IMG/VR virus record: IMGVR_UViG_2737471826_000010
Coordinates: 1 to 35,432 of that record
Strand: one strand, 5' to 3'
Source of the DNA: a virus
Taxonomy: Duplodnaviria > Heunggongvirae > Uroviricota > Caudoviricetes
Length of the DNA stretch: 35,432 bases
In this document: piece after piece, positions 1 to 34,293 of the stretch
How positions within the stretch are numbered: the first letter of the stretch is position 1
How the letters are laid out: each line of letters begins with the position of its first letter
Translations under genes and position numbers: made by a program
The notes under the pieces: generated by a model
The model's database searches: none
Seen by the model: only the letters and a program-made list of their open reading frames with translations
Told to the model about the DNA's origin: nothing

Positions 1-348
1 AGGAAACCCGGGGTGGTTCAACTCGTAGTTGATGCGATCTTTTGTTGGCGACATCGTTGAGATAACTGCGTTTACTAATTGGGCTTCATAACCTAGCGTG
101 CCGTTCACAACATGGGTTTTCTGAGCCACGGCAAACGGGTTCATTCCCCACTGCGCAGCCTGCATTGCCACGGCCATGCAATCAGCTGGTTTCCCGGCGA
201 GGTGCGCCGGTACCGTTACGCGGCTTTGCGCCATTACCTCGGCGAATTTCATCAGTTGGTTCAAGCCGTCTGGGCTGAAAATAGTTGCAGCAGTTCCAGC
301 GATTGCTGTGTCTACTGGTGCGTTGATGTTTGCGATGTCGTTGCTCAT
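1..348 (-). CDS. recT: RecT-family single-strand annealing protein (3' end cut by window edge)
   Basis: ATG at 348 on minus strand, open to position 1; N-terminus MSNDIANINAPVD...KFAEVMAQSRVTVPAHLAGKPADCMAVAMQAAQWGMNPFAVAQKTHVVNG resembles RecT-type annealases; start overlaps stop of the upstream exonuclease gene (ATGA). Confidence 0.55.
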   Translation of the reverse strand, partial: MSNDIANINAPVDTAIAGTAATIFSPDGLNQLMKFAEVMAQSRVTVPAHLAGKPADCMAVAMQAAQWGMNPFAVAQKTHVVNGTLGYEAQLVNAVISTMSPTKDRINYELNHPGFP

Positions 349-1166
349 ATGTACATATCCTGTTTGCGTGCCCACTCAGGGCGTTTAATGATTTCCACAC
401 CGCCCCATTCATCATTGATGCGGCATTCGTGATAGGTATTCAGATCCCTGCGGAACAGAGCGTGCCCGGCATCGACATCCTGCGCATCCAGCTCGAACAC
501 GCGTACCGGATACCGACCACAATCAATGCTTTCGCTCACGGCAAGAAAGAAAAAACCATGCGGCTGACCAGTAACCCTCATTGCGCCTTCGCGGTACATT
601 GCGTCCTGCACGTGGTAGCGGAATTCCTCGATGTGGCGTGCAAAACGGTCCATATCTGCAACCTTTTTCACGTCGACGATCACGTTGTGCTCGTTCAGCC
701 ATTTGTCTGGACGAATTCGGCACAACTCACCCGTCTCTTCATCGTTCCAGTACATTGACGCTTCGCAGTAACCAGGTGCTTCCAACATCCAGCGTGCAGC
801 CGGGTGAGCCATTGTGCTATCACGCATCAGCTCCAGTTTTCGCCACTGCTCGACATCAAGTACCGTAATACCCATATCCGCCACATCACGAAGAAATGCT
901 TCTTCGTCAGCTTTACCTTGTTTTGTCCGACGATCGAATTTCGGTGAAACGATGAAGCGTTTGTCGAATTCTCCAGGTTCCAGAAGCAGACAGTGCAATG
1001 CGGTTCCCATATCCAGTGCAGACTTTTTCTCTTCGTCTTCTGGTGCTGCCTGAACCCATTTAAGAAGCGCCGGATTCTTGGCAACCATGTCAAGTTGCGA
1101 CTTACTCACGCCGTCACCGGCGTGGTAGTCTTCGTTGCTGATGCCGAAATAAATTCCCGGTTTCAT
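345..1166 (-). CDS. RecE-like exonuclease, PD-(D/E)XK fold (exonuclease VIII catalytic-domain type)
   Basis: 273-aa ORF; N-terminal GIYFGISNEDYHAGDGVSKSQL and IVDVKKVADM motif typical of PD-(D/E)XK phage exonucleases; translationally coupled to recT. Confidence 0.55.
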   Translation of the reverse strand: MKPGIYFGISNEDYHAGDGVSKSQLDMVAKNPALLKWVQAAPEDEEKKSALDMGTALHCLLLEPGEFDKRFIVSPKFDRRTKQGKADEEAFLRDVADMGITVLDVEQWRKLELMRDSTMAHPAARWMLEAPGYCEASMYWNDEETGELCRIRPDKWLNEHNVIVDVKKVADMDRFARHIEEFRYHVQDAMYREGAMRVTGQPHGFFFLAVSESIDCGRYPVRVFELDAQDVDAGHALFRRDLNTYHECRINDEWGGVEIIKRPEWARKQDMYI

Positions 1167-1462
1167 GCCGCGTCCTTCTGTCCATCAAGCTGATCCGCCA
1201 GATCCCAGCGGGCGATAATTGCCATTGCCTCTCGCCGGTAGGCATCCATTAGTTCTTCGAACTCAGGGCTGTCTTTAGCGGCCTCCAGCACTTCCTGACG
1301 AACGCCTTTGCCTGTTACAACGTCAAAAGTTGAGGCCAGTTGATGAAGCCGGATACTCTCAATCAGTTCGACTTGTCGGTCATATAGCTGTTCTGACAGA
1401 CGGTAGTCCTTGTCGAATGCCAGCATGATTTTTTGAAGATTTTTCTGCTGATTAACGTTCAT
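1163..1462 (-). CDS. hypothetical early protein (99 aa)
   Basis: ORF in leftward operon; start assigned to ATG at 1462 preceded by GGGAGGG 8 nt upstream, not the track start at 1477. Confidence 0.5.
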   Translation of the reverse strand: MNVNQQKNLQKIMLAFDKDYRLSEQLYDRQVELIESIRLHQLASTFDVVTGKGVRQEVLEAAKDSPEFEELMDAYRREAMAIIARWDLADQLDGQKDAA

Positions 1463-1464
1463 TA

Positions 1465-1617
1465 TCAGCCCTCCCATATCTCGTTATCGTTGGCCACATC
1501 GCGAGCTTCTTTGCTGACGAAAGCCCACTTAATGCCTTCCTGTAAGGTGCGGAACTTCCAGCTCATGAATCCGCATGCAGTAACGCAGTACCAACCGTTG
1601 ATGATTTTCCACTGCAT
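1465..1617 (-). CDS. hypothetical small Cys/Trp-rich protein (50 aa)
   Basis: Below ORF-track size cutoff; ATG at 1617 with GAGGT RBS; first gene after PL-like promoter; stop TGA 2 nt before next start. Confidence 0.35.
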   Translation of the reverse strand: MQWKIINGWYCVTACGFMSWKFRTLQEGIKWAFVSKEARDVANDNEIWEG

Positions 1618-1636
1618 AACTTGTTACCTCGGTCTG

Positions 1637-1651
1637 TTACCGTTGAGGTAA
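1637..1651. promoter_or_regulatory. operator site TTACC-GTTGA-GGTAA (OL-proximal)
   Basis: Perfect copy of the recurring 15-bp palindrome; sits just downstream of the PL-like -10 and 20 bp upstream of the first leftward gene. Confidence 0.6.
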
Positions 1652-1679
1652 TAATTATGCGTATATGGTTTGATGTCAA
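1652..1679 (-). promoter_or_regulatory. PL-like leftward early promoter
   Basis: Minus-strand perfect -35 TTGACA (plus 1674..1679) and AT-rich -10 (plus 1652..1658) with 16-17 bp spacing, flanked by two operator copies. Confidence 0.4.
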
Positions 1680-1698
1680 TAGATATGAGTTAAAAAAA

Positions 1699-1713
1699 TT
1701 ACCCGTTAGGTAA
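1699..1713. promoter_or_regulatory. operator site TTACC-CGTTA-GGTAA (OL-distal)
   Basis: Perfect palindrome copy upstream of the PL-like -35. Confidence 0.6.
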
Positions 1714-1724
1714 TCGAATAGGCA

Positions 1725-1748
1725 ATAAAAAAGCCGCCATAAGGCGGC
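1725..1748 (-). terminator. rho-independent terminator after repressor gene
   Basis: Stem GCCGCC/GGCGGC with 4-nt loop followed on the minus strand by TTTTTTAT. Confidence 0.6.
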
Positions 1749-1770
1749 TTACTTACTGAAAAATATGGTT

Positions 1771-2355
1771 TTATTGTTTGTTTTTTTCGTTCTGGTTGAT
1801 GACAAATTCAATGTAACTTTCGATCTTTGCTTTCTCGGTTTCGGGTAACAATGCGTAGCGCGAGCGATCATAGTTGATGGTCGCAGGGTCATGCGGATGA
1901 ATCAGTAGTTCATATCCGTGACGCCCGAATGCAGATGCAACATTCTCCAGGGTGGAAATGGAAACGCTGACCTCATTGTTTAACAGGCGGCTTATTGTCA
2001 CCTGGGCGACGCCGGATGCGCGGTGAAGTTTTCCCTGAGTTGAAAGGTCGCGGCTTTCACTCATCCAGCGTTCCAGGTTGTGAGCCGCCAGCTGACCTAT
2101 ATCACTCGGGCCGACAGGCTGAAAACCCTCCTGAGAAAGCGAGCGATCAATATCAAGCCAGTTACGGGGTTTATTGGCGGCAGCTTCAATTTTTCGTGCA
2201 ACCTGGTCGCCGATAACCTTCTTGCCAAGAGCCCAGCGGTTTACCAGATTTGCCTGAGTTCCAAGTTTTTCTGCCATCCGCGTCTGAACACCATTGAATT
2301 CACGGTCGATCAAGTCGTTGAGATTTTGCCTGCGGACGTCCTGGATACTTTTCAT
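1771..2355 (-). CDS. CI-like prophage repressor with two helix-turn-helix regions; no peptidase motif seen
   Basis: 194 aa; N-terminal HTH (QTRMAEKLGTQANLVNRWALGKKVIG) and second HTH-like segment (ASGVAQVTISRLLNNE); divergent from cro across the operator; no GDSM or Ser/Lys autocleavage signature by eye. Confidence 0.65.
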   Translation of the reverse strand: MKSIQDVRRQNLNDLIDREFNGVQTRMAEKLGTQANLVNRWALGKKVIGDQVARKIEAAANKPRNWLDIDRSLSQEGFQPVGPSDIGQLAAHNLERWMSESRDLSTQGKLHRASGVAQVTISRLLNNEVSVSISTLENVASAFGRHGYELLIHPHDPATINYDRSRYALLPETEKAKIESYIEFVINQNEKNKQ

Positions 2356-2410
2356 TTTCTGGAAAATCGCCTCATATATGAATCAGTAGATGATTCAATT
2401 TAAAGCAATA

Positions 2411-2425
2411 TTACCCAACAGGTAA
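2411..2425. promoter_or_regulatory. operator site TTACC-CAACA-GGTAA (OR, perfect copy)
   Basis: Perfect palindrome in the repressor-cro intergenic region. Confidence 0.65.
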
Positions 2426-2427
2426 AT

Positions 2428-2473
2428 GCACCTCATAGGTAACTATCCTTGATTTTTGTTACCTTATGGGTGA
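2428..2473. promoter_or_regulatory. two degenerate operator sites plus PR-like promoter
   Basis: GCACC-TCATA-GGTAA (2428..2442) and TTACC-TTATG-GGTGA (2459..2473); candidate -35 TTGATT at 2449..2454 and -10 near 2472..2477; three-site layout like OR1-3. Confidence 0.45.
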
Positions 2474-2509
2474 ATATTTATTATCTGAAATAAATATCAG
2501 GCAATAGCT

Positions 2510-2740
2510 ATGAGCGATAACGGACATTTCGATTTCAAAAAGCACTGGCTTGCACTTACTCCGGATGAGCGTGAAGCCTTCGCACAGGAAGCCGGAACGA
2601 CGAGTCACTATATCCAGACTCACTTAACAGGTAAGCGCAAAATGCCAGGTAAAGTATTGATGAATGGGCTTTTTAAAGCCTGTAAAACAAGACAATGGCT
2701 GCGCTCAAAAGCAGAACTGGCATACTTCTTCTACTCATGA
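2510..2740 (+). CDS. cro: Cro-like small HTH regulator
   Basis: 76 aa, divergent from repressor; HTH-like REAFAQEAGTTSHYIQTHLTGKRKMP; followed by a terminator. Confidence 0.55.
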   Translation: MSDNGHFDFKKHWLALTPDEREAFAQEAGTTSHYIQTHLTGKRKMPGKVLMNGLFKACKTRQWLRSKAELAYFFYS

Positions 2741-2762
2741 TATCCAGCCACAACCCTCTGTA

Positions 2763-2784
2763 GACCGCCATCCGGCGGTCTTTT
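2763..2784 (+). terminator. rho-independent terminator (tR1-like) after cro
   Basis: Stem GACCGCC/GGCGGTC, loop ATCC, then TTTT; a half-degenerate operator copy GTACC-TCAAA-GGTAA follows at 2796..2810. Confidence 0.6.
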
Positions 2785-2890
2785 CATATCTATTCGTACC
2801 TCAAAGGTAATAAAAAACCAAATATGGTTGATCTTTTTTTTGTGTCAGCACAAAATAACCGTAATCCCAATACTAATAACAGGGCTTACC

Positions 2891-3091
2891 ATGGAAATCA
2901 TTACACGTATTGATGCCGCAAAGCGCGGACTTAAACGCTACTACACCGGAAAAACATGTAAGCACGGACATGACAGTGAACGCTGGGTTTACAACGGACA
3001 CTGTGTTGAGTGCACCATGGAATCAAACCGTCGTATCAGGGCAGAGATTAAGCAGATCATGATTAATTCCTCCCCACAACATTCAAGCTGA
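2891..3091 (+). CDS. small Cys/His-rich protein, possible zinc-binding regulator (cII position)
   Basis: Start assigned to ATG 2891 (MEIITRIDAAKRGLKRYYTGKTCKHGHDSERWVYNGHCVEC...); the track N-terminal extension is hydrophobic read-through of intergenic sequence. Confidence 0.35.
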   Translation: MEIITRIDAAKRGLKRYYTGKTCKHGHDSERWVYNGHCVECTMESNRRIRAEIKQIMINSSPQHSS

Positions 3092-3106
3092 TAGCGGAGA
3101 TTAATC

Positions 3107-3922
3107 ATGAGCAGACATGCAACAGATTGGGCCTGGGAGACAGATCCAGGTAGCTCGTCATTAAAGCTCATACTGCTCTCGATGGCTGACAGAGCCGATG
3201 AATATAACCTCTGCTACCCCAGCATAGAACGCCTCGTTAAAGACACTTGCCTGAATAAAAAAACCGTGCAGGCCGGACTTATATCGCTCATGAAAATGGG
3301 GCTTATTTCAGATACCGGGGAGAGAAAGGGAGCGACAAAAAGAGTGCGGGTTTTCTCTCTTAATATAACCAAAAACGGGAACATTAAAGGCAACCGAGAG
3401 GGGGGTAATGAACCCGAAAGCGGTAATGTTACCGAAAACTGGAATATACCCAAAAACGGGATGTTGAATGATCCCAAAAACGGGATGTTGAATGATCCCA
3501 AAAACGGGATCCAGAACCAGTCATATAACCAGTCATTTAACCAAGAGAGGGAGAGCAGGACAAAAAACGGGGATTCTGTGCATCATGACCCCGGCGCAAA
3601 CAACGCCGTGATGAATAACTTTGTTCCTCCTGGTGGGCCAGGGCAATTAGGCAAATTTGTCATGCATGAACAATGGCAGCCATCAGATGACTTTCTTCGG
3701 AAAAGCTCATTGCAGGGGATCTACCTGGACAGTCTGCCAACGGCACAGGAACTTGCAGAGTTCAGAATTTACTGGATGGCTGAGGGTAAGGCATACCATC
3801 AGGCACAGTGGGAGCAGAAGCTGGCAAGGCGGCTGCAGATTAGCAGACAGAAGCAATCAACATTACCTGATAACAACGTTCCGCACTGGAACAGCCCTGA
3901 AGCATGGGAGGATTTCTTGTGA
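3107..3922 (+). CDS. replication initiator, O-like (HTH N-terminus, Asn-rich repeat linker, lambda-O-like C-terminus)
   Basis: 271 aa; N-terminal HTH (LKLILLSMADRADEYNLCYPSIERLVKDTCLNKKTVQAGLISL); central NG-rich repeats encoded by DNA iterons; C-terminal WQPSDDF...IYWMAEGKAY; overlaps downstream P-like gene. Confidence 0.6.
   Translation: MSRHATDWAWETDPGSSSLKLILLSMADRADEYNLCYPSIERLVKDTCLNKKTVQAGLISLMKMGLISDTGERKGATKRVRVFSLNITKNGNIKGNREGGNEPESGNVTENWNIPKNGMLNDPKNGMLNDPKNGIQNQSYNQSFNQERESRTKNGDSVHHDPGANNAVMNNFVPPGGPGQLGKFVMHEQWQPSDDFLRKSSLQGIYLDSLPTAQELAEFRIYWMAEGKAYHQAQWEQKLARRLQISRQKQSTLPDNNVPHWNSPEAWEDFL
3369..3512. repeat. iteron array inside the O-like gene (candidate replication origin)
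   Basis: CCAAAAACGGGA at 3369..3380; 24-bp unit CCCAAAAACGGGATGTTGAATGAT at 3449..3472 and 3473..3496, partial third copy 3497..3512; degenerate copies near 3431 and 3560. Confidence 0.5.
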
Positions 3923-4704
3923 ACAACGTTTTTACCGCGATACAAAACCGTGACGGAGAAGCCCTTTCTCGCATGTCAGGTTATGAGCATCAGTACGTCA
4001 ACAATGACAATGTGGTGAACATGTCAGCAGAGAGGCTTGTTGATGCCCTTTTTAAACAGCTGAAACAACTGTTTCCGGCGGCAGTGGTAACCAACCTGAA
4101 GACGCCAGAGCAGGAAGTTGCTGCAAAACAGCAGTGGATTGCTGCGTTTGCCGAAGGGGGGATCCGAACCCGTGAACAGGTTTCTGCTGGTATGCGCCAC
4201 GCCCGCGCCAGTGAGTCTCCGTTCTGGCCGTCGCCAGGGCAATTCATCAAGTGGTGTAAAGACAGCAAGATGGTTCTTGGCGTCACCATTGACGATGTGA
4301 TGGCGGAGTTTCACCGGTACAGCAAGGAAAAAAGTTTATATCCTGGTGGTCCCGAAAGATTCCCGTGGCGACATCCGGTTATGTACTGGGTCGTATGTGA
4401 TACCCGCCGTGCAATGTATCAGCGCCAGCTTAGCGAGATTGAGGTTGAGAAACACGCGCGCAGGCTGCTCGATGATTGGGCGAAAAAGGTGGCTTCCGGA
4501 CAGCAGATACCCGATCCGGTGATCAGCATACAGGCAAAGCCAGAACCCATGAGTACGCCTCCGGACACAGGGAGAGACGTTTACCATCCACCAGGGCGAA
4601 GTTTCGGGTGCATGCCTAACGCCGCCACCCTTGGGGGAATAACACCGGCGCAGTGGCTGATGGAGGAATACAGGCGGGGAAAGGCGTCAGGATTTATCAA
4701 GTAA
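3904..4704 (+). CDS. replication protein P-like helicase loader
   Basis: Strong resemblance to lambda P central region (FPAAVVTNL...EQVSAGMRHARASESPFWPSPGQFIKWCKDSK versus lambda FPASLANR...EQVNAGMRVARRQNRPFLPSPGQFVAWCREEAS, recalled from memory); true start may be in-frame GTG 3919 with GGGAGGA RBS. Confidence 0.75.
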   Translation: MGGFLVNNVFTAIQNRDGEALSRMSGYEHQYVNNDNVVNMSAERLVDALFKQLKQLFPAAVVTNLKTPEQEVAAKQQWIAAFAEGGIRTREQVSAGMRHARASESPFWPSPGQFIKWCKDSKMVLGVTIDDVMAEFHRYSKEKSLYPGGPERFPWRHPVMYWVVCDTRRAMYQRQLSEIEVEKHARRLLDDWAKKVASGQQIPDPVISIQAKPEPMSTPPDTGRDVYHPPGRSFGCMPNAATLGGITPAQWLMEEYRRGKASGFIK

Positions 4705-4741
4705 TACCAGCGCGATAGCGCATTTTTTTACGTCTCGATAA

Positions 4742-4756
4742 TTACCTTAGAGGTAA
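4742..4756. promoter_or_regulatory. operator site TTACC-TTAGA-GGTAA
   Basis: Perfect palindrome copy upstream of a candidate promoter (-35 TTGATT, -10 TTTAAT) for the 4822 gene. Confidence 0.55.
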
Positions 4757-4803
4757 TAAAATATTCTAAAATCTATTGATTTCGTGTCTTATGTGGTTTT
4801 TAA

Positions 4804-4818
4804 TTACCTAAGGGGTAA
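4804..4818. promoter_or_regulatory. operator site TTACC-TAAGG-GGTAA
   Basis: Perfect palindrome copy 4 bp upstream of ATG 4822, overlapping its RBS and predicted +1. Confidence 0.55.
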
Positions 4819-4821
4819 ATC

Positions 4822-5169
4822 ATGAGAAAACAGATGCAGGCTCTTGGTCGACTCAAAACAGGCCAGATGAACAAAACAGAATCTGCGTATTGCCAGCACC
4901 TTGAGCTGCGTAAACGTGCAGGAGAAATCGTCTGGTATCGATTTGAGGGTATCAAGCTGCGGTTAGCTGACAACACGTTCTATACGCCAGATTTTGCTGT
5001 GATGCTCGCCACCGGCGAGATGGAACTGCACGAAGTGAAAGGGGGATTCTGGACCGATGACGCCAGAGTGAAAACCAAAGTCGCCGCAGATCAGTATCCG
5101 TTCCGAATCATCGGGGTAACGGTTAAGCCAAAGAAAGCAGGTGGTGGCTGGAACATCGAAGAGTTCTGA
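4822..5169 (+). CDS. DUF1064-type phage protein (PD-(D/E)XK-like)
   Basis: 115 aa; YTPDFAV...ELHEVKGGFW core resembles DUF1064 proteins of lambdoid prophages. Confidence 0.5.
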   Translation: MRKQMQALGRLKTGQMNKTESAYCQHLELRKRAGEIVWYRFEGIKLRLADNTFYTPDFAVMLATGEMELHEVKGGFWTDDARVKTKVAADQYPFRIIGVTVKPKKAGGGWNIEEF

Positions 5170-5230
5170 ATCGACGATCTTTTTAGTTATCAATGTAATC
5201 AATAAGTTATGTGGATAAGCGAGGGTAAAG

Positions 5231-5494
5231 ATGGAAAGTAATATCAAAGGGTTAGTTGCCGCCGGGCATGAGATGGCTTCGGAACTGAAAGCAGAATGTG
5301 GTGCCGTTGATATGCGCAGTGTGGCAAAGCTGATCAGCGATTTGGCAACGCAACTGGAAGTGCAACTGGTGCGTGCTAATGCGCTGGCAGCGGAGAATGC
5401 GGTAATGCTCGAAACTATTGAAGCCGTTCGCAGTGTTGCGGATAACTCCAGTGGAATTGCCGGATGGCATTTGAATGGCGATATCGCTACGTGA
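5231..5494 (+). CDS. hypothetical protein (87 aa)
   Basis: ORF with GAGGG RBS; predicted helical; no recognisable motif. Confidence 0.45.
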   Translation: MESNIKGLVAAGHEMASELKAECGAVDMRSVAKLISDLATQLEVQLVRANALAAENAVMLETIEAVRSVADNSSGIAGWHLNGDIAT

Positions 5495-5775
5495 AAAAAG
5501 GCATTACGGACTCACAGGGGGAGCCGTGGGTTGGTGACTGGAAATATGTACCGACAAAAGAGGATTGCAACGACAGACCGAACTATGAAATTCAGGCGTT
5601 ATTCACTGCCCCGCCTGTGCCACTGACACCAGAAGGATTGATTAAAGCAGTGCGTTTCTATGAACAGGTTAAGCGTGAGAATCCGCCAGTCGAAACCGGA
5701 GCATGGAAAGACGCTGTTGACTGGGTGCTCAAAGAGGCTTGCCAGGCTGTAAACATTGGTACCAAAGGAGAGTGA
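5464..5775 (+). CDS. hypothetical protein (103 aa)
   Basis: ORF overlapping the previous gene by 31 nt in another frame; start uncertain. Confidence 0.35.
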   Translation: MAFEWRYRYVKKGITDSQGEPWVGDWKYVPTKEDCNDRPNYEIQALFTAPPVPLTPEGLIKAVRFYEQVKRENPPVETGAWKDAVDWVLKEACQAVNIGTKGE

Positions 5776-5776
5776 G

Positions 5777-5968
5777 ATGAACGGACAAATATCAATTGTT
5801 CGACCGGGAGCATGTGACGATTGCGAGATACGAATGATTATTCGTCTGGCGAGGGGGAAAACAATAACTGCTCTCATTACTCCAGAAAATCTCGCATTAG
5901 CATTAACAGGAAAGTCAGACCTGCCAGTAGAGCTAAAGCTTCGAAATGTTGAGATTAAGGTGAAATAG
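5777..5968 (+). CDS. hypothetical small protein (63 aa)
   Basis: Start assigned to ATG 5777 preceded by AAAGGAGAG; contains CDDCE motif. Confidence 0.4.
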   Translation: MNGQISIVRPGACDDCEIRMIIRLARGKTITALITPENLALALTGKSDLPVELKLRNVEIKVK

Positions 5969-5970
5969 CT

Positions 5971-6516
5971 ATGACCACTATAACCTATAAGAAACAGTAT
6001 CCCAGCGATCAATATCTTAATGAGCTGATCACCAACATGGAGTTTGCTGCAAGGGCACCAGTTGAAGTCGTGAGAGTGATGGCAGCAGAGCTACAGAAGC
6101 GGCGCGAAGCTGATAGTACAGAACCTGTAAGTAATCATGAAGAGTTGCCGCTTGATTATCTCCAAGGTCAAAAAGATGGTCTTGAATGGGCTGCGCAGCT
6201 TGCAGAAGCAAATCACCCACAAACTGGCGACTGGCTTTACGATGACCCGCTGGAGCTGGCTAAAGCTATCAGAAAAGGTCCTGACATGCCTGAATTCGAT
6301 GGACCAACTCCGGTAACTCCGGATGGTTGGATAAGCTGTAGTGATCTAATGCCGGAAGAGCTTGTGGATGTGCTTGTTACTGATGGCGAGCATGTTGAGG
6401 TTAAATGGTGGAATGGTCATATTTGGGATTGTTGGGCACCTCGCAATTCAGATATTAGTTACAAAGATGTAACTCACTGGATGCCATTACCAGAGCCGCC
6501 GCAGGAGGTGAAGTGA
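5971..6516 (+). CDS. DUF551-domain phage protein
   Basis: C-terminal [11 protein letters not shown]...[11 protein letters not shown] matches the DUF551 signature as I recall it. Confidence 0.5.
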
Positions 6517-6857
6517 TGGACTATTCACAGTTAAGTGATTTTGAAATTAACAGAATGGTAGGAGACATAATTTTTAAAGGCCTTTGGGCATGTAAACCGG
6601 AAACATCAGGGAATAACACCAACAAATGGTATTACGGAAATACTGATACAACTTTTGAGCCATTAAACCATTTACCTGACTACTGCAATGATCCTAGCGC
6701 CTCATGGCCGATTATTGAGAAACACAGGATTTCTATCTTAGACCAGTTAACTGAATGGTGTGTTGATGCAAAAGGCGTAAGACCAATATTTGATACCAGA
6801 CCTCTCCGCGCCGCCATGATTGTATTTCTCATGATGCAGGAAAATCAGAATGGCTAA
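6513..6857 (+). CDS. hypothetical phage protein (114 aa; possibly DUF2591-type)
   Basis: ORF translationally coupled to both neighbours; family assignment from memory only. Confidence 0.4.
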
Positions 6858-7188: not shown

Positions 7189-7196
7189 CATGTCAC
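7185..7196. repeat. 12-bp perfect palindrome GTGACATGTCAC (copy 1)
   Basis: Exact palindrome containing the stop codon of gene 6850..7188; terminator 42 bp downstream. Confidence 0.8.
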
Positions 7197-7237
7197 GAGT
7201 AGATTATGCATGATGAATTTGATGGGTTTTGAATACT

Positions 7238-27144: not shown

Positions 27145-27225
27145 TGTGAAATTTCCATCTATAAGCCACCTCAATGTGGCGTCAATGAGTGTAGCACTGA
27201 CTTTTGTTTCGTCCATAAAAAACTA

Positions 27226-27738
27226 CTATGCAGGCTTTTTGGATTTGTACGAATAATCCCACGGATAAACATTTCTACTAAGTGGAGCTGTATTCGTTCG
27301 TTCATGAAATAATTTTGTGAAATTCAATACGGAATCCATCCAAACTTTTGCGTTAGCTTTGGTGTGTGCGGGCGGGTCCCAATAAGCTAGTAAGGCTGCA
27401 TCTCTTATTTCATTGACTGCATATATGAGATATGCGTTACTGGTTGGTTTTGGCCTGTAATTTCCTTGTTCATCAATCAATCCGTATGACCACTCATCCC
27501 AACACTGTTCAGTACATGAGTATGAATATGATGCATATTCACCAATATTGACATGAACCTTTCTGAGATGGAAACCTAATACTTCGTCTGGTCTTTCAAA
27601 AAGAGTATCTTTTCCCAGATCAGGATGATGACCATGACGCCAGTGTTGTTTAAAAGCATCTTTTAGCGAAATCAGAAAGTCATCAGTTTTAAACTCACCA
27701 GTAGGTATAACCTTCCCGCTATACTCACTCAAAAACAT
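27226..27738 (-). CDS. YafO-like toxin (putative ribosome-dependent mRNA interferase)
   Basis: 170 aa; PDLGKDTLFE, FHLRKVHVNIG and AYLIYAV...ALLAYWDPPAHTKA align with remembered E. coli YafO blocks (PDTFGRDALYD, ERVAHIHLANE, AHLVYCQ...WLLIAILKPEPHKLA); strong RBS AAGGAAGAGGAA; AT-rich. Confidence 0.45.
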   Translation of the reverse strand: MFLSEYSGKVIPTGEFKTDDFLISLKDAFKQHWRHGHHPDLGKDTLFERPDEVLGFHLRKVHVNIGEYASYSYSCTEQCWDEWSYGLIDEQGNYRPKPTSNAYLIYAVNEIRDAALLAYWDPPAHTKANAKVWMDSVLNFTKLFHERTNTAPLSRNVYPWDYSYKSKKPA

Positions 27739-28051
27739 CGAATTCCTCTTCCTTCATATGCGTTTCTAATGAGTTAAGCTGGCGGAAAGATATCTCTTTT
27801 GATTCTGCAGATGAGAGCTTTTTTATCCGCTTTATATTCTTTGTGATAGGAATAGACATTGTATGCACATCAGCGGATGCTCTTGGCTTTGTGCTGATAA
27901 AAATATGGCGCAATGCCGCATTTTCACTATTGAACGAGCCAATAGCTGATTTACGTGCTACAACCTTACCAGTAAAAATACGACTCTTGCTACGCTTTGC
28001 ATGAGTTCCGCTTCTTACCGGACCTCTCATCACGAATCCAAGTTTTGTCAT
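27725..28051 (-). CDS. putative antitoxin/partner of the YafO-like toxin
   Basis: 108 aa, basic N-terminus, acidic C-terminus EEEFDVFE; GGAGA RBS; overlaps the toxin gene by 14 nt; not obviously YafN/Phd-like. Confidence 0.4.
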   Translation of the reverse strand: MTKLGFVMRGPVRSGTHAKRSKSRIFTGKVVARKSAIGSFNSENAALRHIFISTKPRASADVHTMSIPITKNIKRIKKLSSAESKEISFRQLNSLETHMKEEEFDVFE

Positions 28052-28093
28052 CTTTAATCTCCGGTAAGTTACAGGTATAAAATAAAAACAGGT

Positions 28094-28108
28094 TTACCTT
28101 TAAGGTAA
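28094..28108. promoter_or_regulatory. operator site TTACC-TTTAA-GGTAA upstream of toxin-antitoxin-like operon
   Basis: Perfect palindrome copy 43 bp upstream of start codon at 28051. Confidence 0.55.
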
Positions 28109-28180
28109 TAGTACGCTATTCACCCCCAGTCTGCAATCTGTACAGAATTATTTAAAGGCACATCCCTGTGCCGCCGCCAG

Positions 28181-28891
28181 TCAGAAGAACCCTGCCTTGT
28201 CGTTGATGTATTCCGCGTGTGTCTGGATATCACGCAGGCATTTGCTCACACCGACGATGTAGCAGAACATGGTGGTCAGTTCCGCCGCCGCGCCCGATAC
28301 GTCGTGCCCGTCGTCCTGTAACTGGTTCAGCAGATTCATCAGCAGTGAGTTCTCCGTCAGGCCGAGAACACCAGACGGCGAGTGAATCAGGCTGCGGTAG
28401 CCGGGCTTCAGTGGGGCGCTGTAGGTTTTGTTCTCTATCTTCATTGCCTGCATCACTGCTGATGCTGTGGCGTTGGCTACCTGGTCGGCAACCATCTTTA
28501 TGCGTTCTTCCTGCGGGAGCGAGTTTTTAATGTAACTTCCGGTGCGGCGGATCTGAGGAAGTACTTCGCCTGTAACCCATTTGCGAAAGCGGTAGGGGAT
28601 AGTGCCTGGTGTCACCGCATCGCGGCAGCGGAGGATCAGTGTGTAGAGGCCTGACTCGGAGATGATGTTGATCTCTTTTACTCGGCTGTCAAAAATTGCA
28701 CGATGTTCATGCCCTATGTTGAACATAGACCTTTCATCATCATCCAGTTTTTCAAGTGCTTGGGTGACGTTTTGGATACGCAGCGCACTACAAACGTCTT
28801 GGGCTACAAACCATGGTTGGCCATCGATAATGATGGAACGGATAGGGTTAACAGATTCAAATTTGAAGATGGCAGTTTGAGCATTAGCCAT
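28181..28891 (-). CDS. antirepressor with Bro-N domain
   Basis: N-terminal WFVAQDVCSAL...SGLYTLILRCRD...FRKWVTGEVLPQIRRTG is a Bro-N-type signature; start set to ATG 28891 with GGAGA RBS; C-terminal domain paralogous to gene 29207..29464. Confidence 0.65.
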   Translation of the reverse strand: MANAQTAIFKFESVNPIRSIIIDGQPWFVAQDVCSALRIQNVTQALEKLDDDERSMFNIGHEHRAIFDSRVKEINIISESGLYTLILRCRDAVTPGTIPYRFRKWVTGEVLPQIRRTGSYIKNSLPQEERIKMVADQVANATASAVMQAMKIENKTYSAPLKPGYRSLIHSPSGVLGLTENSLLMNLLNQLQDDGHDVSGAAAELTTMFCYIVGVSKCLRDIQTHAEYINDKAGFF

Positions 28892-29048
28892 GGTGGTTAT
28901 CTCCACTTAGTGATTTTAATCACCACCGCAACGCCAATTACTGGTGGTGAACTGGACAAGGTTGGCGTACCGGCCTAAGTGGTACCGGCGTCCTTTCGGA
29001 CCCCTGCCCAGCCCACCATAATTCGGATATAGCTGTGCTTAACGCATA

Positions 29049-29071
29049 AAAAAACCACGTCTGGCGTGGTA
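29049..29071 (-). terminator. rho-independent terminator between the two antirepressor genes
   Basis: Stem ACCACG/CGTGGT, loop TCTGG, minus-strand T7 tract. Confidence 0.6.
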
Positions 29072-29160
29072 TGCGCCACTTAGTAACCCGGGACGCCAAT
29101 CCCGGCACTGGATTTTGCCAGTGCCTGATTACTATGGCACAAGAGGAGTGCGATGTAAAT

Positions 29161-29175
29161 TTACCGCAAAGGTAA
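29161..29175. promoter_or_regulatory. operator site TTACC-GCAAA-GGTAA
   Basis: Perfect palindrome copy between the small and large antirepressor genes. Confidence 0.55.
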
Positions 29176-29206
29176 ATATAAGCACTCCACTTGGTAATTG
29201 CAAACC

Positions 29207-29464
29207 TTATCTGGTTTGTTTTCGTAATTGTTCGGCACAATAGTCGAGATGTGTTTGCAGATCCTGCATAGACATCTGTGAGCTGGTGACGTAGTTAATC
29301 AGTGCAGTCAGTTCGGCAAGTGGGCCATCGACATTAAATCCATCCTTATCGAGATCCCGGAGTAATTTCATCAAGTGCGATCCCTCCACCAGTGACCTGA
29401 CGCCTCCCGGCGTGTGAATCCTTTCGGTAAATCCGTCTTCCAGTGGATAGTGATACCGCTGCAT
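29207..29464 (-). CDS. small antirepressor-domain protein (paralog of Ant C-terminal domain), candidate SOS-induced antirepressor
   Basis: 85 aa from ATG 29464 (GGAGA RBS); IHTPGGVRSLVEGSHLMKLLRDLDKDGFNVDGPLAELT...LQTH aligns with Ant C-terminus IHSPSGVLGLTENSLLMNLLNQLQDDGHDVSGAAAELT...IQTH; LexA box 20 bp upstream. Confidence 0.55.
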   Translation of the reverse strand: MQRYHYPLEDGFTERIHTPGGVRSLVEGSHLMKLLRDLDKDGFNVDGPLAELTALINYVTSSQMSMQDLQTHLDYCAEQLRKQTR

Positions 29465-29483
29465 CTTATCTTCTCCATGCAAT

Positions 29484-29503
29484 AACTGTATAAATATACA
29501 GTA
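29484..29503. promoter_or_regulatory. LexA (SOS) box
   Basis: AACTGTATAAATATACAGTA matches consensus TACTGTATATATATACAGTA at 18 of 20 positions with intact CTGT-N8-ACAG. Confidence 0.7.
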
Positions 29504-29540
29504 TCAAATAATTTGTTTGCTATCCAGCACGTTTTGCAAA

Positions 29541-29555
29541 TTACCCGAAAGGTAA
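29541..29555. promoter_or_regulatory. operator site TTACC-CGAAA-GGTAA
   Basis: Perfect palindrome copy in the divergent region between small antirepressor gene and tailspike gene. Confidence 0.55.
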
Positions 29556-29659
29556 TATCTATTCGTATTTACAGTCTTTCTATCCATATGTGGTTTTTCA
29601 GGTAATAGAATAACCAGATATGCGGCGCAACGGGTGCTGCGACTATCTGGAGATTTAAC

Positions 29660-31849
29660 ATGACGGTCTCAACCGAAGTTGACCACAACGAATACACCGG
29701 TAACGGCGTTACGACATCATTTCCGTATACCTTCCGTATTTTCAAAAAAACCGACCTGGTTGTTCAGGTGTCTGACCTGAACGGGAACGTAACAGAATTG
29801 GTTCTGGATACCGGTTATAAGGTAACTGGAGCGGGCACTTATAGTGGCGGTGAAGTGGTTCTCCCGTCGCCGCTTGCTGCTGGCTGGCGAATTACGATAG
29901 AGCGTGTGCTTGATGTGGTGCAGGAGACTGATCTTCGCAATCAGGGAAAATTTTTCCCCGAAGTTCATGAAGATGCATTTGACTACCTGACGATGCTGAT
30001 CCAGCGATGTTTTGGGTGGTTCAGACGTGCATTGATGAAACCATCTTTGCTTGCAAAATATTACGATGCAAAGCAAAACAAAATTTCTAACCTTGCAGAT
30101 CCATCATTTGAGCAGGACGCTGTAAATAATCGCTCAATGCGTAATTATGTCGATGCTGCAATCGCCGGGGTTGTTGGTGGTTTTGGTTGGTTTATACCGT
30201 CAGGAAGCGAGGCAAGACAACGAACATTTCAAAGCAAAATGAGGGATATAATTTCTCCTTGTGATTACGAAGATAATATTTTTATGATTAAGGAGTTGAT
30301 ATCCAAAGGCAAAAATGCCGCTGTTTTTAACTCATATTATACTTTTGTTATTACTGTTGGCGAATGGGGTGATTACCCTACACTCAAAGATGCAATCATT
30401 GCAGCCCAGTCAATGAGACCTATGTGGGATGGTGGTAATGCTTTCTGCGAAATAAGAATTAAGACCGGGCATATTATCAACTATCAAATTGAATTCAGTT
30501 CAGGTGTTGATTTGTCTTGGATTAAAATAACATCAGAAGACTCAGTGGTTTTCTCTGACACTCGTTTGTTTACTAAAATCGTTAGAACGTATTACGAATA
30601 CAAGTATTTATTTTACATTTGCGATGCAGCAAAAAGTCCTGTATTTGCTATTCAGATCGAAGAAAATAGAGATGATAGCGATGTTTGTGCATTTATTGTA
30701 ACTCAAAAAGCTGAACTTAATTTCTATCCGTATTCAGGTGCTCGAAAGTTCTACGTTGGAATTCATGGTAGTTTTGGTGCAAAAATTAGTGCATATCATA
30801 CCGGATGTGCTCCTGATGAGGAAAGTGTTGCTGCATATATGCCAGAAGGGTATTACGTATGTGATTTTTCTTATAGCAGATACTCTTCCCTGCAACTGGT
30901 AAATAATGTCAAGGCATCAATGCCTGTAAGCAAGTTTGAACGGTGCACAGAGAGTACGGTTGCGTCAGTTAATTGTATTTATAATGTTAAAGCAGATTTT
31001 CAGGGGTCAAGTGCAAGCTATTGTTATATAGGATGGAATGTAAGAGATGGTTCAAATGTTAATATACGCGACCATAAAACTATACATTGCTCATATCGTG
31101 GATTAACCTGCATTCATACAGCATATGTTGATGCAAGACGACATGACGTTGAAGAAAGTGATGCAGAAACAAGTGGTAAAGTCCTTGAACCAAATATTGA
31201 AAAAGGTTTTTATGGATGTGCACTTGGTGTGCGTATTGATGGTGCGGGTTGCGTTGATGTTGCTGGTAATGATATGCGCAATTGTGGAACAGCCGTTAAT
31301 GCAGACACTGGTGCTGTTATTTCAGGAAAGGCTGTAGATATCTCAGGGGCTGAGCTGGGATTTGATTGCCATGCAGGAGCATCTGTTAATTTTCCAAGGC
31401 TATGGGGTACAGATATAAAAAAATTAATGCACCTCCAAGATGGTGTAAGGTTTAACTCTAATATTTGTCATGTATTTGGTGCAAATCCCACAAAAGATAT
31501 TAGATGGATTGATGTAGAGAGATCTGAAGCTTCTTTTATGAATGCAACGCTGGATGCAGATTCAGGATTTATTGCCGACTGTGGTAGTAGGATAACCATT
31601 GAAGGAAGTAAAGTTAAAAACCAAACAATAAGAAGTTTTTTTGGATCATATGTGGCTATAAATAATACTGTTGCTGACAGAACTTATTCAGATATAGCCG
31701 ATGTTCCGCAGTTGACTATTAGTGGAGGATCTTTTATTTCTGCTACAGGATATTCTAATTCTGACTCCAGCCCTCTGAGGTTGAGCACAACACGAAATAC
31801 ACTTGGCGTTGGAGGAGCCATATTTTCAACCAATGGGGAAGTTTCATGA
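29660..31849 (+). CDS. tailspike / tail fiber with T7-type N-terminal adaptor and divergent receptor-binding domain
   Basis: N-terminus EYTGNGVTTSFPYTFRIF...GWRITIERV resembles podovirus tail-fiber head-binding domain; C-terminal ~550 aa Cys/Gly/Asn-rich; DNA becomes AT-rich after ~30200. Confidence 0.7.
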   Translation: MTVSTEVDHNEYTGNGVTTSFPYTFRIFKKTDLVVQVSDLNGNVTELVLDTGYKVTGAGTYSGGEVVLPSPLAAGWRITIERVLDVVQETDLRNQGKFFPEVHEDAFDYLTMLIQRCFGWFRRALMKPSLLAKYYDAKQNKISNLADPSFEQDAVNNRSMRNYVDAAIAGVVGGFGWFIPSGSEARQRTFQSKMRDIISPCDYEDNIFMIKELISKGKNAAVFNSYYTFVITVGEWGDYPTLKDAIIAAQSMRPMWDGGNAFCEIRIKTGHIINYQIEFSSGVDLSWIKITSEDSVVFSDTRLFTKIVRTYYEYKYLFYICDAAKSPVFAIQIEENRDDSDVCAFIVTQKAELNFYPYSGARKFYVGIHGSFGAKISAYHTGCAPDEESVAAYMPEGYYVCDFSYSRYSSLQLVNNVKASMPVSKFERCTESTVASVNCIYNVKADFQGSSASYCYIGWNVRDGSNVNIRDHKTIHCSYRGLTCIHTAYVDARRHDVEESDAETSGKVLEPNIEKGFYGCALGVRIDGAGCVDVAGNDMRNCGTAVNADTGAVISGKAVDISGAELGFDCHAGASVNFPRLWGTDIKKLMHLQDGVRFNSNICHVFGANPTKDIRWIDVERSEASFMNATLDADSGFIADCGSRITIEGSKVKNQTIRSFFGSYVAINNTVADRTYSDIADVPQLTISGGSFISATGYSNSDSSPLRLSTTRNTLGVGGAIFSTNGEVS

Positions 31850-32142
31850 TTAAGAGCATTGATGTCACTCCATTTCTTCACTCGCTTTGCGCTTTTGTGG
31901 CTCAGGTACTGGTTGGTATTTTTACCGGAAACTGGGCTTACGGTGCGATAGCCGGTTGTACGTTCTTCATTGCGCGTGAACACACCCAGGCAGAATATCG
32001 CTGGATAGAAAAGTTTGGGAAAGGGAAACGTATCAACATGCCGTGGTGGGGAGGTTTTGATCCACGCGTGTGGGATGTGGGAAGTCTGTTGGATTTTGCT
32101 GTTCCTGTTGTTTTTTGTTTTTGTGTTTATTTCTCTATTTGA
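31846..32142 (+). CDS. small membrane protein (98 aa), function unknown
   Basis: Two or more hydrophobic segments; ATGA overlap with tailspike stop. Confidence 0.45.
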   Translation: MIKSIDVTPFLHSLCAFVAQVLVGIFTGNWAYGAIAGCTFFIAREHTQAEYRWIEKFGKGKRINMPWWGGFDPRVWDVGSLLDFAVPVVFCFCVYFSI

Positions 32143-32344
32143 CTGCTACCGCGCCATTAAATGGTGCGGTATTCAACCTGCTCTTCACTGTTTGTTTCTT
32201 CAGAGTCATGTAAAAGGTGAGCTTTATTCTCGGCATGAAAAACAGGGAATTGACGATGTTAAAGTAACAAAAAACCATAAATGGTTTATTATGCGTAATG
32301 CTTTACTGTTCAGGAGGTTGTTATGCATATAAACGGTGGAAAAC

Positions 32345-32749
32345 ATGTCAGCTCAACTAACCAGTGAAACTTTAAATCAGTGGCTTAGCATGAGTTCTCT
32401 GGCGGCGGTGATAGCAGGAGTTCCTCCTGAGGTTGCTTTGGGTGCTTTGGCTGGAGCGGTAATTTTTGTTACCTCTGCAGTAGAGTACCCCATCCGTCGC
32501 CGGGTGCTCCTGTCGATGCTCAGCTTTCTTTGCGGCCTTCTCTTTTACAAACCAGCAGCATCAATTCTTATCGGCATAGCCAGCCTGATCCCTACCATCA
32601 CGCAGGACTCTTTTGAAAAAGGGATTGTTTTCTCTGCAGGCGCATTCGTGTCAGCAATTGTCGCTGTGCGTATTGGTATATGGCTCTATCACCGTTCCGA
32701 TAATCCACGCGAGTTAATTCCGGGGAGAAAAGACGATGGTAACGCATGA
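32345..32749 (+). CDS. holin-like membrane protein
   Basis: Multiple hydrophobic helices; directly upstream of endolysin; start set to ATG 32345. Confidence 0.4.
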   Translation: MSAQLTSETLNQWLSMSSLAAVIAGVPPEVALGALAGAVIFVTSAVEYPIRRRVLLSMLSFLCGLLFYKPAASILIGIASLIPTITQDSFEKGIVFSAGAFVSAIVAVRIGIWLYHRSDNPRELIPGRKDDGNA

Positions 32750-33044
32750 GTTTTTTTTGCTTATCACCAATGCAGTTATTTGCACTGGCATAGCAATTCG
32801 CGTTGTCACATTCCGGCGTAACGGCTCTCAACACCGAAGGTGGGGAGGATGGCTTGCTTATTTCCTGATTGTTGCTGCGGCCAGTATTCCTGTTCGTGTC
32901 GCCTATGCAATCTGGTTACGTACGCCAATGGCTGTGGATTTATCTGAGGTCATTATCAACGCTGTCATGCTAGCTGCGGTTATTAAAACGCGCGGTAACG
33001 TCGTTCAAATTTTCAAAGTATCGAGGTCTAAACATGGAGATTAA
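32736..33044 (+). CDS. holin/antiholin-like membrane protein
   Basis: 102 aa with hydrophobic helices; overlaps previous gene and endolysin start. Confidence 0.4.
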
Positions 33045-33663
33045 ACAATTCCAGCGAGCTGCTGGTATCAGCGAGGCACTGGCCGCACGCTGGTTCTCGC
33101 ATATAACTTCTGCGATGAAAGAGTTTGGTATCAGCAAACCAGAAGATCAGGCTATGTTTATTGCTCAGGTCGGGCATGAGTCTGGAGGCTTCACCCGGTT
33201 GCAGGAGAATTTCAACTACAGCGTCAGCGGACTGGCTAACTTTGTTCGGGCTGGGCGTCTCACTCAGGGACAGGCCAACGCATTGGGGCGACGTGCAGGC
33301 GAACCACCATTGCCACTTGAGCGCCAGAGAGCGATTGCCAATCTGGTGTACAGCAAACGCATGGGGAACAATGCCCCTGGTGATGGCTGGAACTACCGTG
33401 GGCGCGGGCTTATCCAGGTTACCGGTTTGAATAACTATCGTGACTGTGGAAACGGTCTTAAGGTTGACCTGCTGGAGAGTCCTGAACTGCTGGCGCAGGA
33501 CGAATACGCGGCTCGTAGCGCGGCGTGGTTCTTTGCCAGCAAAGGATGCATGAAGTATACCGGCGATATTGCACGTGTAACTCTGATTATCAATGGTGGC
33601 CGGAACGGCATCGACGACCGGCGCGCGCGATACATCAATGCCAGTAAGGTGCTGGCGGTATGA
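33034..33663 (+). CDS. endolysin, glycoside hydrolase family 19 type
   Basis: [12 protein letters not shown] and [15 protein letters not shown] motifs characteristic of GH19 lysozymes. Confidence 0.8.
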
Positions 33664-34142
33664 TCTGGGCATTCGTAAAAGCATACCGGAAACAGTTGAT
33701 TATCATGGCGGTGCTTGCTGTTCTGGTCATATCAGGAGTTGTTGCCTGGAGTGTACACGGCAGTCGTCAGTACGACGCCGGGTATGCGCAGGCGAAAGAA
33801 GACCGCAAAACCGAAGATGAGAGAATTCGTCAGCACTACGAACAGGAGAAAGCGATCAATGAACGTGAAGCGCAGCAGAGGATCGACCAGGCGCGCAATG
33901 ATGCTCTTGATGCTGCCGCTCGCGCTGGCCGGTTGCAGCAACAGCTCGTTGCCATCCGTGAGCAGCTCAGGCAGTATAACGCCATTGTCGGCGCTGGGAC
34001 GTCAGCCGCAGACACCGGAGTTTTGCTTGCCGACGTGCTCAGTAAATCTCTCGAGAGAAACAGACAACTGGCAGAGTATGCTGACCGGGCAGCCGAAGCC
34101 GGAAGAGTCTGTGAAAAACAGTACGACACCCTGACCAGATAG
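33660..34142 (+). CDS. Rz: i-spanin (Rz-like)
   Basis: N-terminal transmembrane segment then coiled-coil periplasmic domain; follows endolysin with ATGA overlap; contains embedded +1-frame lipoprotein ORF. Confidence 0.7.
33859..34134 (+). CDS. Rz1: o-spanin (Rz1-like), embedded in Rz
   Basis: +1-frame ORF entirely within Rz; [26 protein letters not shown] lipoprotein signal (lipobox LAGC), Pro-rich mature region. Confidence 0.6.
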   Translation: MNVKRSRGSTRRAMMLLMLPLALAGCSNSSLPSVSSSGSITPLSALGRQPQTPEFCLPTCSVNLSRETDNWQSMLTGQPKPEESVKNSTTP

Positions 34143-34293
34143 CATGGCATTTTTCATGGTACTGATTTCCGGTGACGGTATATAAAACGGTACGATAAAA
34201 ATTGAGATTTGGAAAAATGTTATCACTCAATTGGTTATGGTTATCGTAAATAATTGAGTGGGAATGATTTTGATCCCTGCACTATGAATGAAC

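Follow-up and report, generated by a model that had tools for sequence, protein, structure and literature searches.

Epsilon15 is the type species of its group of phages, and its virion has been studied by electron cryo-microscopy (cryoEM). RefSeq places both epsilon15 and phiV10 in the genus Uetakevirus; the genus criterion of the International Committee on Taxonomy of Viruses is approximately 70% nucleotide identity. The attP/attB core of ZX5, phiV10 and epsilon15, ATTGAGTGGGAATGATT, lies at the 3′ end of guaA (PMC9782041). Here we describe a stretch of 35,432 nucleotides (IMG/VR virus record IMGVR_UViG_2737471826_000010, positions 1 to 35,432), called the window here, and we hold with high confidence that it contains the greater part of a single phiV10/epsilon15-type prophage (genus Uetakevirus), integrated in E. 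coli at the 3′ end of guaA. The prophage type is common and already described: at least 80% of window 1–25000 is carried by 279 of 5426 complete E. coli genomes. Its value as a discovery is limited, as the genus is named and comes with sequenced type phages, cryoEM structures and a solved repressor–antirepressor complex. The checked map is useful as annotation. It gives structural roles to proteins such as the adaptor and the nozzle, which in RefSeq still carry the name "hypothetical protein" in a nearly identical prophage of E. coli, and it sets the right-hand boundary of the prophage. The points of remaining interest in this common E. coli prophage are a pair of RNA elements (isrK and C4) before a second antirepressor gene, repressor sites at late operons and a protein like epsilon15 gp49.

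Identity and boundaries of the prophage

When window 1–25000 was compared with phage records by megablast, phiV10, the O157 typing phages 9 and 10, PAS61, phiv142-3, ZX5 and HEMP4 matched at approximately 97% nucleotide identity over 89–93% of the query (97.5% across 93% for phiV10). Tyrion (81%) and 65FD, PAT1 and epsilon15 (approximately 76%) are farther members of the group. The rest of the window, beyond 25000, gave piecewise matches to the same phages. Direct comparison with phiV10 yielded collinear blocks at 21–5402, 6850–26524, 28170–30094 and 32273–34269. The ORF positions given in the initial annotation were confirmed. The gene order (terS, terL, portal, capsid, adaptor, nozzle, core proteins, tailspike, lysis, att) agrees with the phiV10 and epsilon15 annotations, the int end lying off the window. 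Two hallmark capsid proteins of the Uetakeviruses, the gp7 major capsid protein and the gp10 staple protein, are present (see the table for coordinates and scores). The initial annotation had proposed a comparison with whole genomes of known temperate podoviruses, and collinearity with phiV10 at approximately 97% identity is what this comparison gave.

With the phiV10 group the window shares the gene order, the attP core at guaA, the repressor type, a tRNA-Arg gene and the isrK/C4 pair. It differs in having another nin-like block (5403–6849), other cargo (26525–28169), and a replaced tailspike receptor-binding part and following gene (30095–32272), with no oac O-acetyltransferase. Epsilon15 has the same order, portal, gp7 capsid, gp10 staple, adaptor, nozzle, core proteins, lysis cassette, integrase site and gp49-like gene. 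The identity to epsilon15 of approximately 76%, however, covers structural genes only, and epsilon15 lacks the Bro-N antirepressor and both the isrK and the C4 RNA and has O-antigen polymerase conversion genes.

Two adjacent unrelated prophages or remnants, a reading that the initial annotation had itself raised, could in principle produce the strand switches at 9466–10115 and 26983–29501 and the drop in guanine plus cytosine (GC) content at 30001–32000. The whole stretch, however, aligns with its order kept to single phage genomes of 39 kb such as phiV10, and phiV10 also has the two minus-strand blocks, which are a tRNA insert and the ant module. The window has a single att core, located at its right end, and neither a second att site nor a second integrase was found in the window. 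We give this reading virtually no credence and treat the window as a single phiV10-type prophage.

The right end of the prophage is defined by ATTGAGTGGGAATGATT, an exact match to the published core that occurs once in the window; the similarity to phiV10 stops exactly at its last nucleotide, 34269. E. coli MS 198-1 carries this prophage between guaA and yfgI, and yfgI followed by a lipoprotein gene (yfgH by position) is found here past attR. Judged by these genes, 34362–35432 is host chromosome and not phage. A strong terminator hairpin (34294–34321) lies directly past attR, ahead of yfgI. The window edge coincides with the start codon of the lipoprotein gene. The record of phage TL-2011b matches the host flank too.

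At the left end, recT is truncated by the window edge; the whole gene is present in E. coli MS 198-1. By comparison with that strain, approximately 3.4 kb of the prophage lies off the window. This part contains the remainder of recT, genes for an AlpA-like regulator, PerC, a methylase and DUF1382, int and attL; xis is off the window too.

Two observations speak against the identification of the window with a phiV10-type prophage. The segments 5403–6849, 26525–28169 and 30095–32272 are unlike phiV10; they are normal mosaicism within the group. The int/attL end lies outside the window, so the completeness or inducibility of this copy is not demonstrable. A defective or cryptic copy that makes no virions would fit the off-window left end and the fact that the copy is known as sequence alone. 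Against it, all large structural, replication and lysis open reading frames (ORFs) are intact and full length compared with phiV10, and close relatives such as ZX5 and PAS61 are known as plaque-forming isolates. We consider a defective copy unlikely and a phiV10-type prophage whose large ORFs in the window are intact the better description.

Virion genes and their relation to T7

A related tail of solved structure is that of Carin-1, a phage of Cobetia marina (8CK0/8CK1). The portal, nozzle, adaptor and tailspike N-terminus are homologous to those of Carin-1, and their structural roles follow from this homology. The portal aligns with the Carin-1 portal 8CK0 at 5.7e-179, and tailspike residues 1–202 align with Carin-1 Dpo31 at 2.7e-31. 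By analogy with this tail, the virion would be short-tailed. Carin-1 differs in that its host is a marine bacterium; the comparison with it covers these virion proteins.

The 201-residue adaptor was modeled with AlphaFold2 (predicted local distance difference test score, pLDDT, 81.5). A Foldseek search with this model returned Carin-1 8ck1_E, with a template modeling (TM) score of 0.81, then phage LME-1; T7 gp11 (7box_M) was found at E 1.4e-6 and TM 0.56. Further fold matches were to P-SCSP1u, PhiM1, HRP29 and tail tubular protein A of KP32 (5mu4). On its modeled fold, the protein is assigned as a T7 gp11-type (tail tubular A) adaptor. In the RefSeq record of epsilon15, its gp11 is already linked with tail tubular protein A of T7.

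The initial annotation had described the structural block as T7-like in gene sizes and order and had suggested homology and structure searches for the portal, capsid and tail tubular proteins. These searches agree with the description: there is a PF12236 portal, a gp11-fold adaptor, a Carin-1-type nozzle and a gp14-family protein. The capsid belongs to the epsilon15 gp7 family. As in T7 gp8–gp17, the order is portal, a gene at the scaffold position, capsid, an adaptor of approximately 200 residues, a nozzle of approximately 800 residues, small core proteins, large ejection proteins, a fiber or spike and then the holin, with similar sizes. The portal family, the adaptor fold and the gp14 family are common to T7 and the window. 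The phage differs from T7 in being temperate, in having its terminase genes first (terS and terL precede the portal gene, as initially noted) and in its epsilon15-type capsid with staple and cement proteins. Five genes follow the nozzle gene, where T7 has four; the initial count of four internal proteins was one too low.

BLASTP of the portal, nozzle, 837-residue protein and tailspike against T7 gp8, gp12, gp16 and gp17, respectively, gave no significant match, and the link to T7 is therefore one of profiles and fold only. For the tailspike, BLASTP with gp17 picked out a short motif at the corresponding position (E 0.19), and there was no PF03906 match at E ≤ 0.01. The tail protein ORF7 of ZX5 is reported to have a T7-like tail-fiber N-terminal domain (PMC9782041). 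The 181-residue protein matches the T7 gp14 family PF24072 at 2.5e-7 (31.2 bits, the cut-off being 27), and the NCBI pipeline names a homologue likewise. The larger internal proteins match PHROG head, transglycosylase and structural families only; for the 837-residue protein, these are transglycosylase and endolysin-type virion families. An NCBIfam scan of ten structural or regulatory proteins gave no useful names. When the large ORFs and most small ones within the window were scanned with Pfam and PHROG, none matched an RNA polymerase family. The phage does not belong to the T7 family (Autographiviridae); what the two have in common is an ancient virion module.

A recent recombination, in which a lambdoid early region was newly joined to a T7-like lytic virion module, would account for the lambdoid and P22-like relatives of some early genes (lambda P, NinX, DUF551 and Ea22-like neighbors) as well as for the T7-type portal, adaptor and gp14 homologues. 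The collinear whole phage genomes refute it: phiV10 and many other isolates and prophages contain both halves, identically ordered and with approximately 97% identity. Epsilon15 keeps this order at approximately 76% identity, so the joint is old and genus-defining, and comparison with T7 itself gave no significant pairwise match. We regard a recent recombinant as extremely improbable. The "hybrid" architecture seen initially is real insofar as lambda-like control is combined with T7-type virion genes. It is not new, being the standard architecture of the Uetakeviruses (epsilon15, phiV10, SPC32H).

RefSeq and PHROGs label homologues of the 233-residue ORF, at the position of T7 gp9, as "protease". 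We did not accept this label; no peptidase family matched in Pfam or NCBIfam, and there was also no match among Protein Data Bank (PDB) entries. The N-terminal half is acidic, rich in proline and alanine and of low complexity, and the whole protein has one histidine and one cysteine. It is probably a scaffold rather than a protease, though as a candidate only, judged from its composition and position.

Repressor sites, antirepressors and the early region

The prophage encodes homologues of SPC32H Rep and Ant (PDB 5D50), and as in SPC32H the ant gene stands behind a LexA box, here the perfect CTGTATAAATATACAG. With one mismatch allowed, the LexA box search gave chance-level matches only. On these homologies, the switch is classed as the SPC32H Rep/Ant type. 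A domain scan of Rep detected HTH (helix-turn-helix) domains only and no S24 peptidase domain. The 85-residue Ant ORF is labeled "hypothetical" in relatives.

A search for TTACC-N5-GGTAA with at most one mismatch identified 13 sites, against 0.49 expected by chance. With N6 spacing there were none, and N5 is the right spacing. The consensus is identical to that of the seven dispersed "repressor" binding sites annotated in the epsilon15 RefSeq record. The early sites lie at the PL-like promoter, in the Rep/Cro intergenic region, past the cro terminator and before DUF1064. The others lie before terS, the portal operon and the tailspike, and within the island between the ejection genes and the tailspike. 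The transcription units are set apart by terminators. The 13 sites probably correspond to the "dispersed-operator" finding mentioned in the initial annotation.

A review (PMC7380047) cites Kim and Ryu 2013 (SPC32H) among work showing that the repressor is inactivated by an antirepressor that is produced once LexA has cleaved itself. In ZX5, overexpression of the repressor and of the Bro-family anti-repressor each affects the lytic–lysogenic cycle; the ZX5 repressor sequence equals that of phiV10, and its anti-repressor is only 39% identical to that of phiV10 (PMC9782041). The homology to SPC32H is observed directly, and the following mechanism is proposed by analogy with SPC32H and ZX5. Rep would bind the TTACC-N5-GGTAA operators, which lie at the divergent promoters of Rep and Cro and in front of almost all transcription units. 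It would silence each unit directly, and with them the whole genome, including the terS, portal and tailspike units, with no N/Q antitermination cascade. Upon DNA damage, LexA would leave its box before ant and Ant would be made. Ant would then bind Rep and strip it from the DNA, and lytic growth would start.

The early genes are arranged much as in lambda. In this respect, and in its P-type helicase loader and NinX, the prophage resembles lambdoid phages, and this much of the lambdoid early functions proposed initially holds. What does not hold is a CI-type repressor, since the protein lacks the self-cleaving S24 domain and matches SPC32H Rep, or a lambda O initiator, since the initiator is not of that family (Phage_rep_O). 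No N or Q antiterminator family is present among the Pfam and PHROG matches of the scanned early ORFs, as the initial annotation had also observed, and neither of the two small early-left ORFs is N-like. The initiator gene contains four iteron-like repeats CCCAAAAACGGGA at 3361–3513, three of them at 24-nt spacing; lambda likewise has its origin inside the O gene. Replication would then involve this initiator with its internal iterons and the lambda P-type helicase loader.

The island (26531–29501) is mostly on the minus strand. The initial annotation had placed an accessory island at the position of the P22 immI region, which proved apt in function as well as position: as in P22, an antirepressor module separates the ejection-protein genes from the tailspike gene. 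By their sequence matches, two antirepressor-type genes are assigned in the prophage. Beyond the SPC32H arrangement, the window has a second, longer antirepressor, in which a Bro-N domain is fused to an Ant-like C-terminus, together with RNA elements. The isrK and C4 RNAs lie side by side in the leader of this gene; phiV10 has the pair too, unannotated in its record. The ORF at 28938–29240 on the minus strand was not accepted as a gene, since both RNAs overlap with it.

C4 is named in Rfam as the antisense RNA of the P1/P7 immI region, and in P1, as here, it lies ahead of the ant gene. In contrast to immI of P22 and P1, no Mnt, Arc or icd was found in the window (for icd, the leader was read by eye only), and control involves LexA and Rep operators. 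The leader, read in this way and with no systematic search for a coupling ORF (icd, orf45), holds only a 14-codon ORF. The arrangement of isrK RNA and terminator ahead of an antirepressor gene is that of Gifsy-1 isrK-anrP. There, isrK, orf45 and anrP are transcribed together from the isrK promoter, and this transcript needs the short IsrK RNA for its translation (PMC4825925). The two elements would probably add RNA-level control of the Bro-N/Ant protein, like that of Gifsy-1 and P1 immI.

What counts against this scheme is that homologues are the source for the binding of Rep to the 13 sites, for the control of ant by LexA and for the expression of isrK and C4, and that the timing of the late genes is not accounted for. 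Loss of Rep may be insufficient, with the late genes needing a dedicated regulator. The last early gene, followed by a palindrome and a strong terminator before terS, encodes a 112-residue protein of the epsilon15 gp49/N15 gp46 family. As such a regulator, the protein would act at these two elements. The palindrome, GTGACATGTCAC, and the terminator are kept in epsilon15 though the sequence between them has diverged. The protein has conserved cysteines at 79, 82, 91 and 93 (CxxC...CxC), and its homologues are usually encoded at or near the early-operon end in varied temperate phages. Against a regulatory role, the protein matched no family in Pfam or NCBIfam, Q, N and Ogr/Delta included, and a profile search gave no PDB match. 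The AlphaFold2 model, of low confidence (pLDDT 67) and hence weak evidence, had no Foldseek match below E = 4. In ZF40, a Yersinia phage and N15, moreover, the gp49-like gene is not beside the terminase or other late genes. A need for such a regulator is doubtful, and casting the 112-residue protein in this role is a guess that we do not favor. We retain direct silencing by Rep as the preferred reading.

It is a speculative and rather unlikely notion that the Uetakeviruses follow a control logic of their own, with one repressor before every unit, two antirepressors with separate inputs and a gp49-like late regulator of a new kind. If so, Rep would be released via Ant (LexA input) and via Bro-N/Ant (isrK and C4 RNA input). 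The Uetakeviruses would then be without an N/Q cascade since their control logic, so far undescribed as a whole, differs.

The database start of terS, TTG 7229, would place the terminator within the coding sequence; ATG 7266 is therefore the likelier start.

Tailspike, island cargo and lysis end

The coordinates of all features are collected below.

Table. Features of the window. Values after a family or structure are E values; positions in reverse order run along the minus strand.
Position	Strand	Feature	Evidence or remark
1–348	−	recT N-terminus, 116 codons	PF03837 RecT, 1.5e-16; translation from 348: MSNDIANINAP
345–1166	−	PD-(D/E)XK (RecE-like) recombination exonuclease	PF12684 (DUF3799), 4.1e-22; PGAP name in relative
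~1163–1462, 1465–1617	−	Two small early-left ORFs, like epsilon15 gp36 and gp37	phrog_856, phrog_898
1679–1651	−	PL-like promoter TTGACA-17-AATTAT (putative)	Predicted from sequence; between operator-like sites 1637–1651 and 1699–1713
1731–1750	−	Intrinsic terminator past repressor gene	phiV10 terminator annotated at corresponding place
1771–2355	−	Repressor Rep, two HTH domains	PF01381; SPC32H Rep 5D50_A, 4e-42
2456–2484		PR-like promoter	Divergent Rep/Cro region 2411–2484; operator-like sites 2411–2425, 2459–2473
2510–2740	+	Cro-like small repressor	phrog_35 transcriptional repressor, 5.6e-13; diverges from rep
2762–2781	+	Terminator past cro-like gene	Followed by operator-like site 2796–2810
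3107–3922	+	Replication initiator, HTH_36 and DnaT domain	Domain scan
3904–4704	+	Lambda P-family helicase loader	PF06992, 1.5e-56
4742–6857	+	Nin-like block: DUF1064, small ORFs, DUF551, NinX	NinX PF10765, 1.1e-16; operator-like sites 4742, 4804
6850–7188	+	112-residue Cys-rich protein, epsilon15 gp49/N15 gp46 family	phrog_536; last early gene
7185–7196		Perfect 12-bp palindrome	Overlaps stop codon of the 112-residue gene
7238–7255	+	Strong intrinsic terminator	Before terS
7275–7289, 7293–7307		Rep operator-like sites before terS	Motif search
Starts 1637, 1699, 2411, 2459, 2796, 4742, 4804, 7275, 7293, 10438, 28094, 29161, 29541		13 Rep operator-like sites	Motif search
7229–7903	+	Terminase small subunit, terS	PF03592, 1.4e-29
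7900–9375	+	Terminase large subunit, terL	phrog_2 terL, 9.9e-53
9466–9840	−	N4 gp49/Sf6 gp66-family ORF	Between terL and portal gene
10039–10115	−	tRNA-Arg(TCT)	Between terL and portal gene; also annotated in ZX5 and MS 198-1
10764–12443	+	Portal, 559 residues, T7 gp8-type connector	PF12236, 1.6e-187, full length
12440–12736	+	Bbp19-like protein	PF25181
Ends 13434	+	233-residue ORF, position of T7 gp9	phrog_458
13443–14435	+	Major capsid protein, 330 residues, epsilon15 gp7 family	PF20911, 2.1e-149
14487–14924	+	Bbp16 cement protein	PF21190, 4.1e-47
Between 14924 and 15315	+	114-residue ORF	Between cement and staple genes
15315–15644	+	gp10-like capsid staple protein	PF21628, 7.3e-52
15644–16249	+	Tail adaptor, 201 residues	Carin-1 connector 8CK1_E, 1.5e-26
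16249–18720	+	Tail nozzle, 823 residues, position of T7 gp12	Carin-1 "Tail Nozzle" 8CK1_A, 1.2e-217
18720–26521	+	Five internal/ejection ORFs: 154, 181, 837, 600, 824 residues	PHROG internal virion, head, transglycosylase, structural families
26531–26944	+	Predicted lipoprotein, 137 residues, signal peptide ending LISAC	Past last ejection gene; terminator after; absent from phiV10
26983–28051 region	−	Cargo ORFs: 77, 170, 108 residues	Absent from phiV10; operator-like site 28094–28108
28181–28891	−	Second antirepressor, Bro-N fused to Ant-like C-terminus	PF02498, 1e-19; residues 160–236 match SPC32H Ant 5D50_E, 2.3e-13
28940–29023	−	C4 antisense RNA	Rfam RF01695, 66 bits (gathering score 45), full length
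29048–29124	−	isrK Hfq-binding RNA and its terminator	Rfam RF01394, 67.7 bits (gathering score 50), full length
29203–29175	−	Promoter-like site	Upstream of isrK/C4; Rep operator-like site 29161–29175
29207–29464	−	Antirepressor Ant, 85 residues	5D50_E antirepressor, 9.9e-47
29486–29501	−	Perfect LexA box	22 nt upstream of ant start
29660–31849	+	Tailspike, 729 residues	Rep operator-like site upstream, 29541–29555
31846–32142	+	98-residue hydrophobic protein	phrog_1443
32336–32749	+	Holin-like protein	PF16931
32736–33044	+	Holin	PF05449
33034–33663	+	GH19 endolysin	PF00182
33660–34142	+	Rz-like spanin, embedded Rz1 frame ending 34134	PF10721; phiV10 annotation
34253–34269	+	attR core, right prophage end	Exact match to published attP/attB core
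34362–34901	−	Host yfgI (DUF5384)	PF17358; yfgI flanks same prophage in E. coli MS 198-1
34917–35432	−	Host glycine-zipper lipoprotein (yfgH by position)	PF05433

In the minus-strand block between terL and the portal gene, a plus-strand ORF (9858–10109, phiV10p04-like) overlaps the tRNA gene and may not be real.

The first 165–205 residues of the tailspike are common to many PHROG tailspike families. The similarity to phiV10 ends at 30094, inside the tailspike gene, where the GC content falls to 0.38–0.41. This fits a conserved N-terminal anchor with an apparently exchangeable receptor-binding part. The segment 30095–32272, unrelated to phiV10, holds that receptor-binding part and the 98-residue hydrophobic protein. 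The latter takes the position of oac (O-acetyltransferase) in phiV10 and of the O-antigen conversion genes in epsilon15; in both phages these genes lie on the opposite strand. As there is no O-antigen acetyltransferase and the receptor-binding part is replaced, host range and serotype conversion probably differ from those of phiV10.

The island ORFs at 26531–28051 are variable cargo, in which PADLOC detected no defense system. The predicted lipoprotein gene lies roughly where P22 has sieA. In 27226–28108, the 108- and 170-residue ORFs overlap behind an operator-like site and could be a small toxin–antitoxin-like pair. A YafO-toxin match of the 170-residue ORF (E 9.5e-4) was below the Pfam cut-off and was not used.

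The lysis cassette (32336–34142) is at the extreme right, as initially annotated, and closes the late region beside attR, in the same way as in phiV10 and epsilon15.

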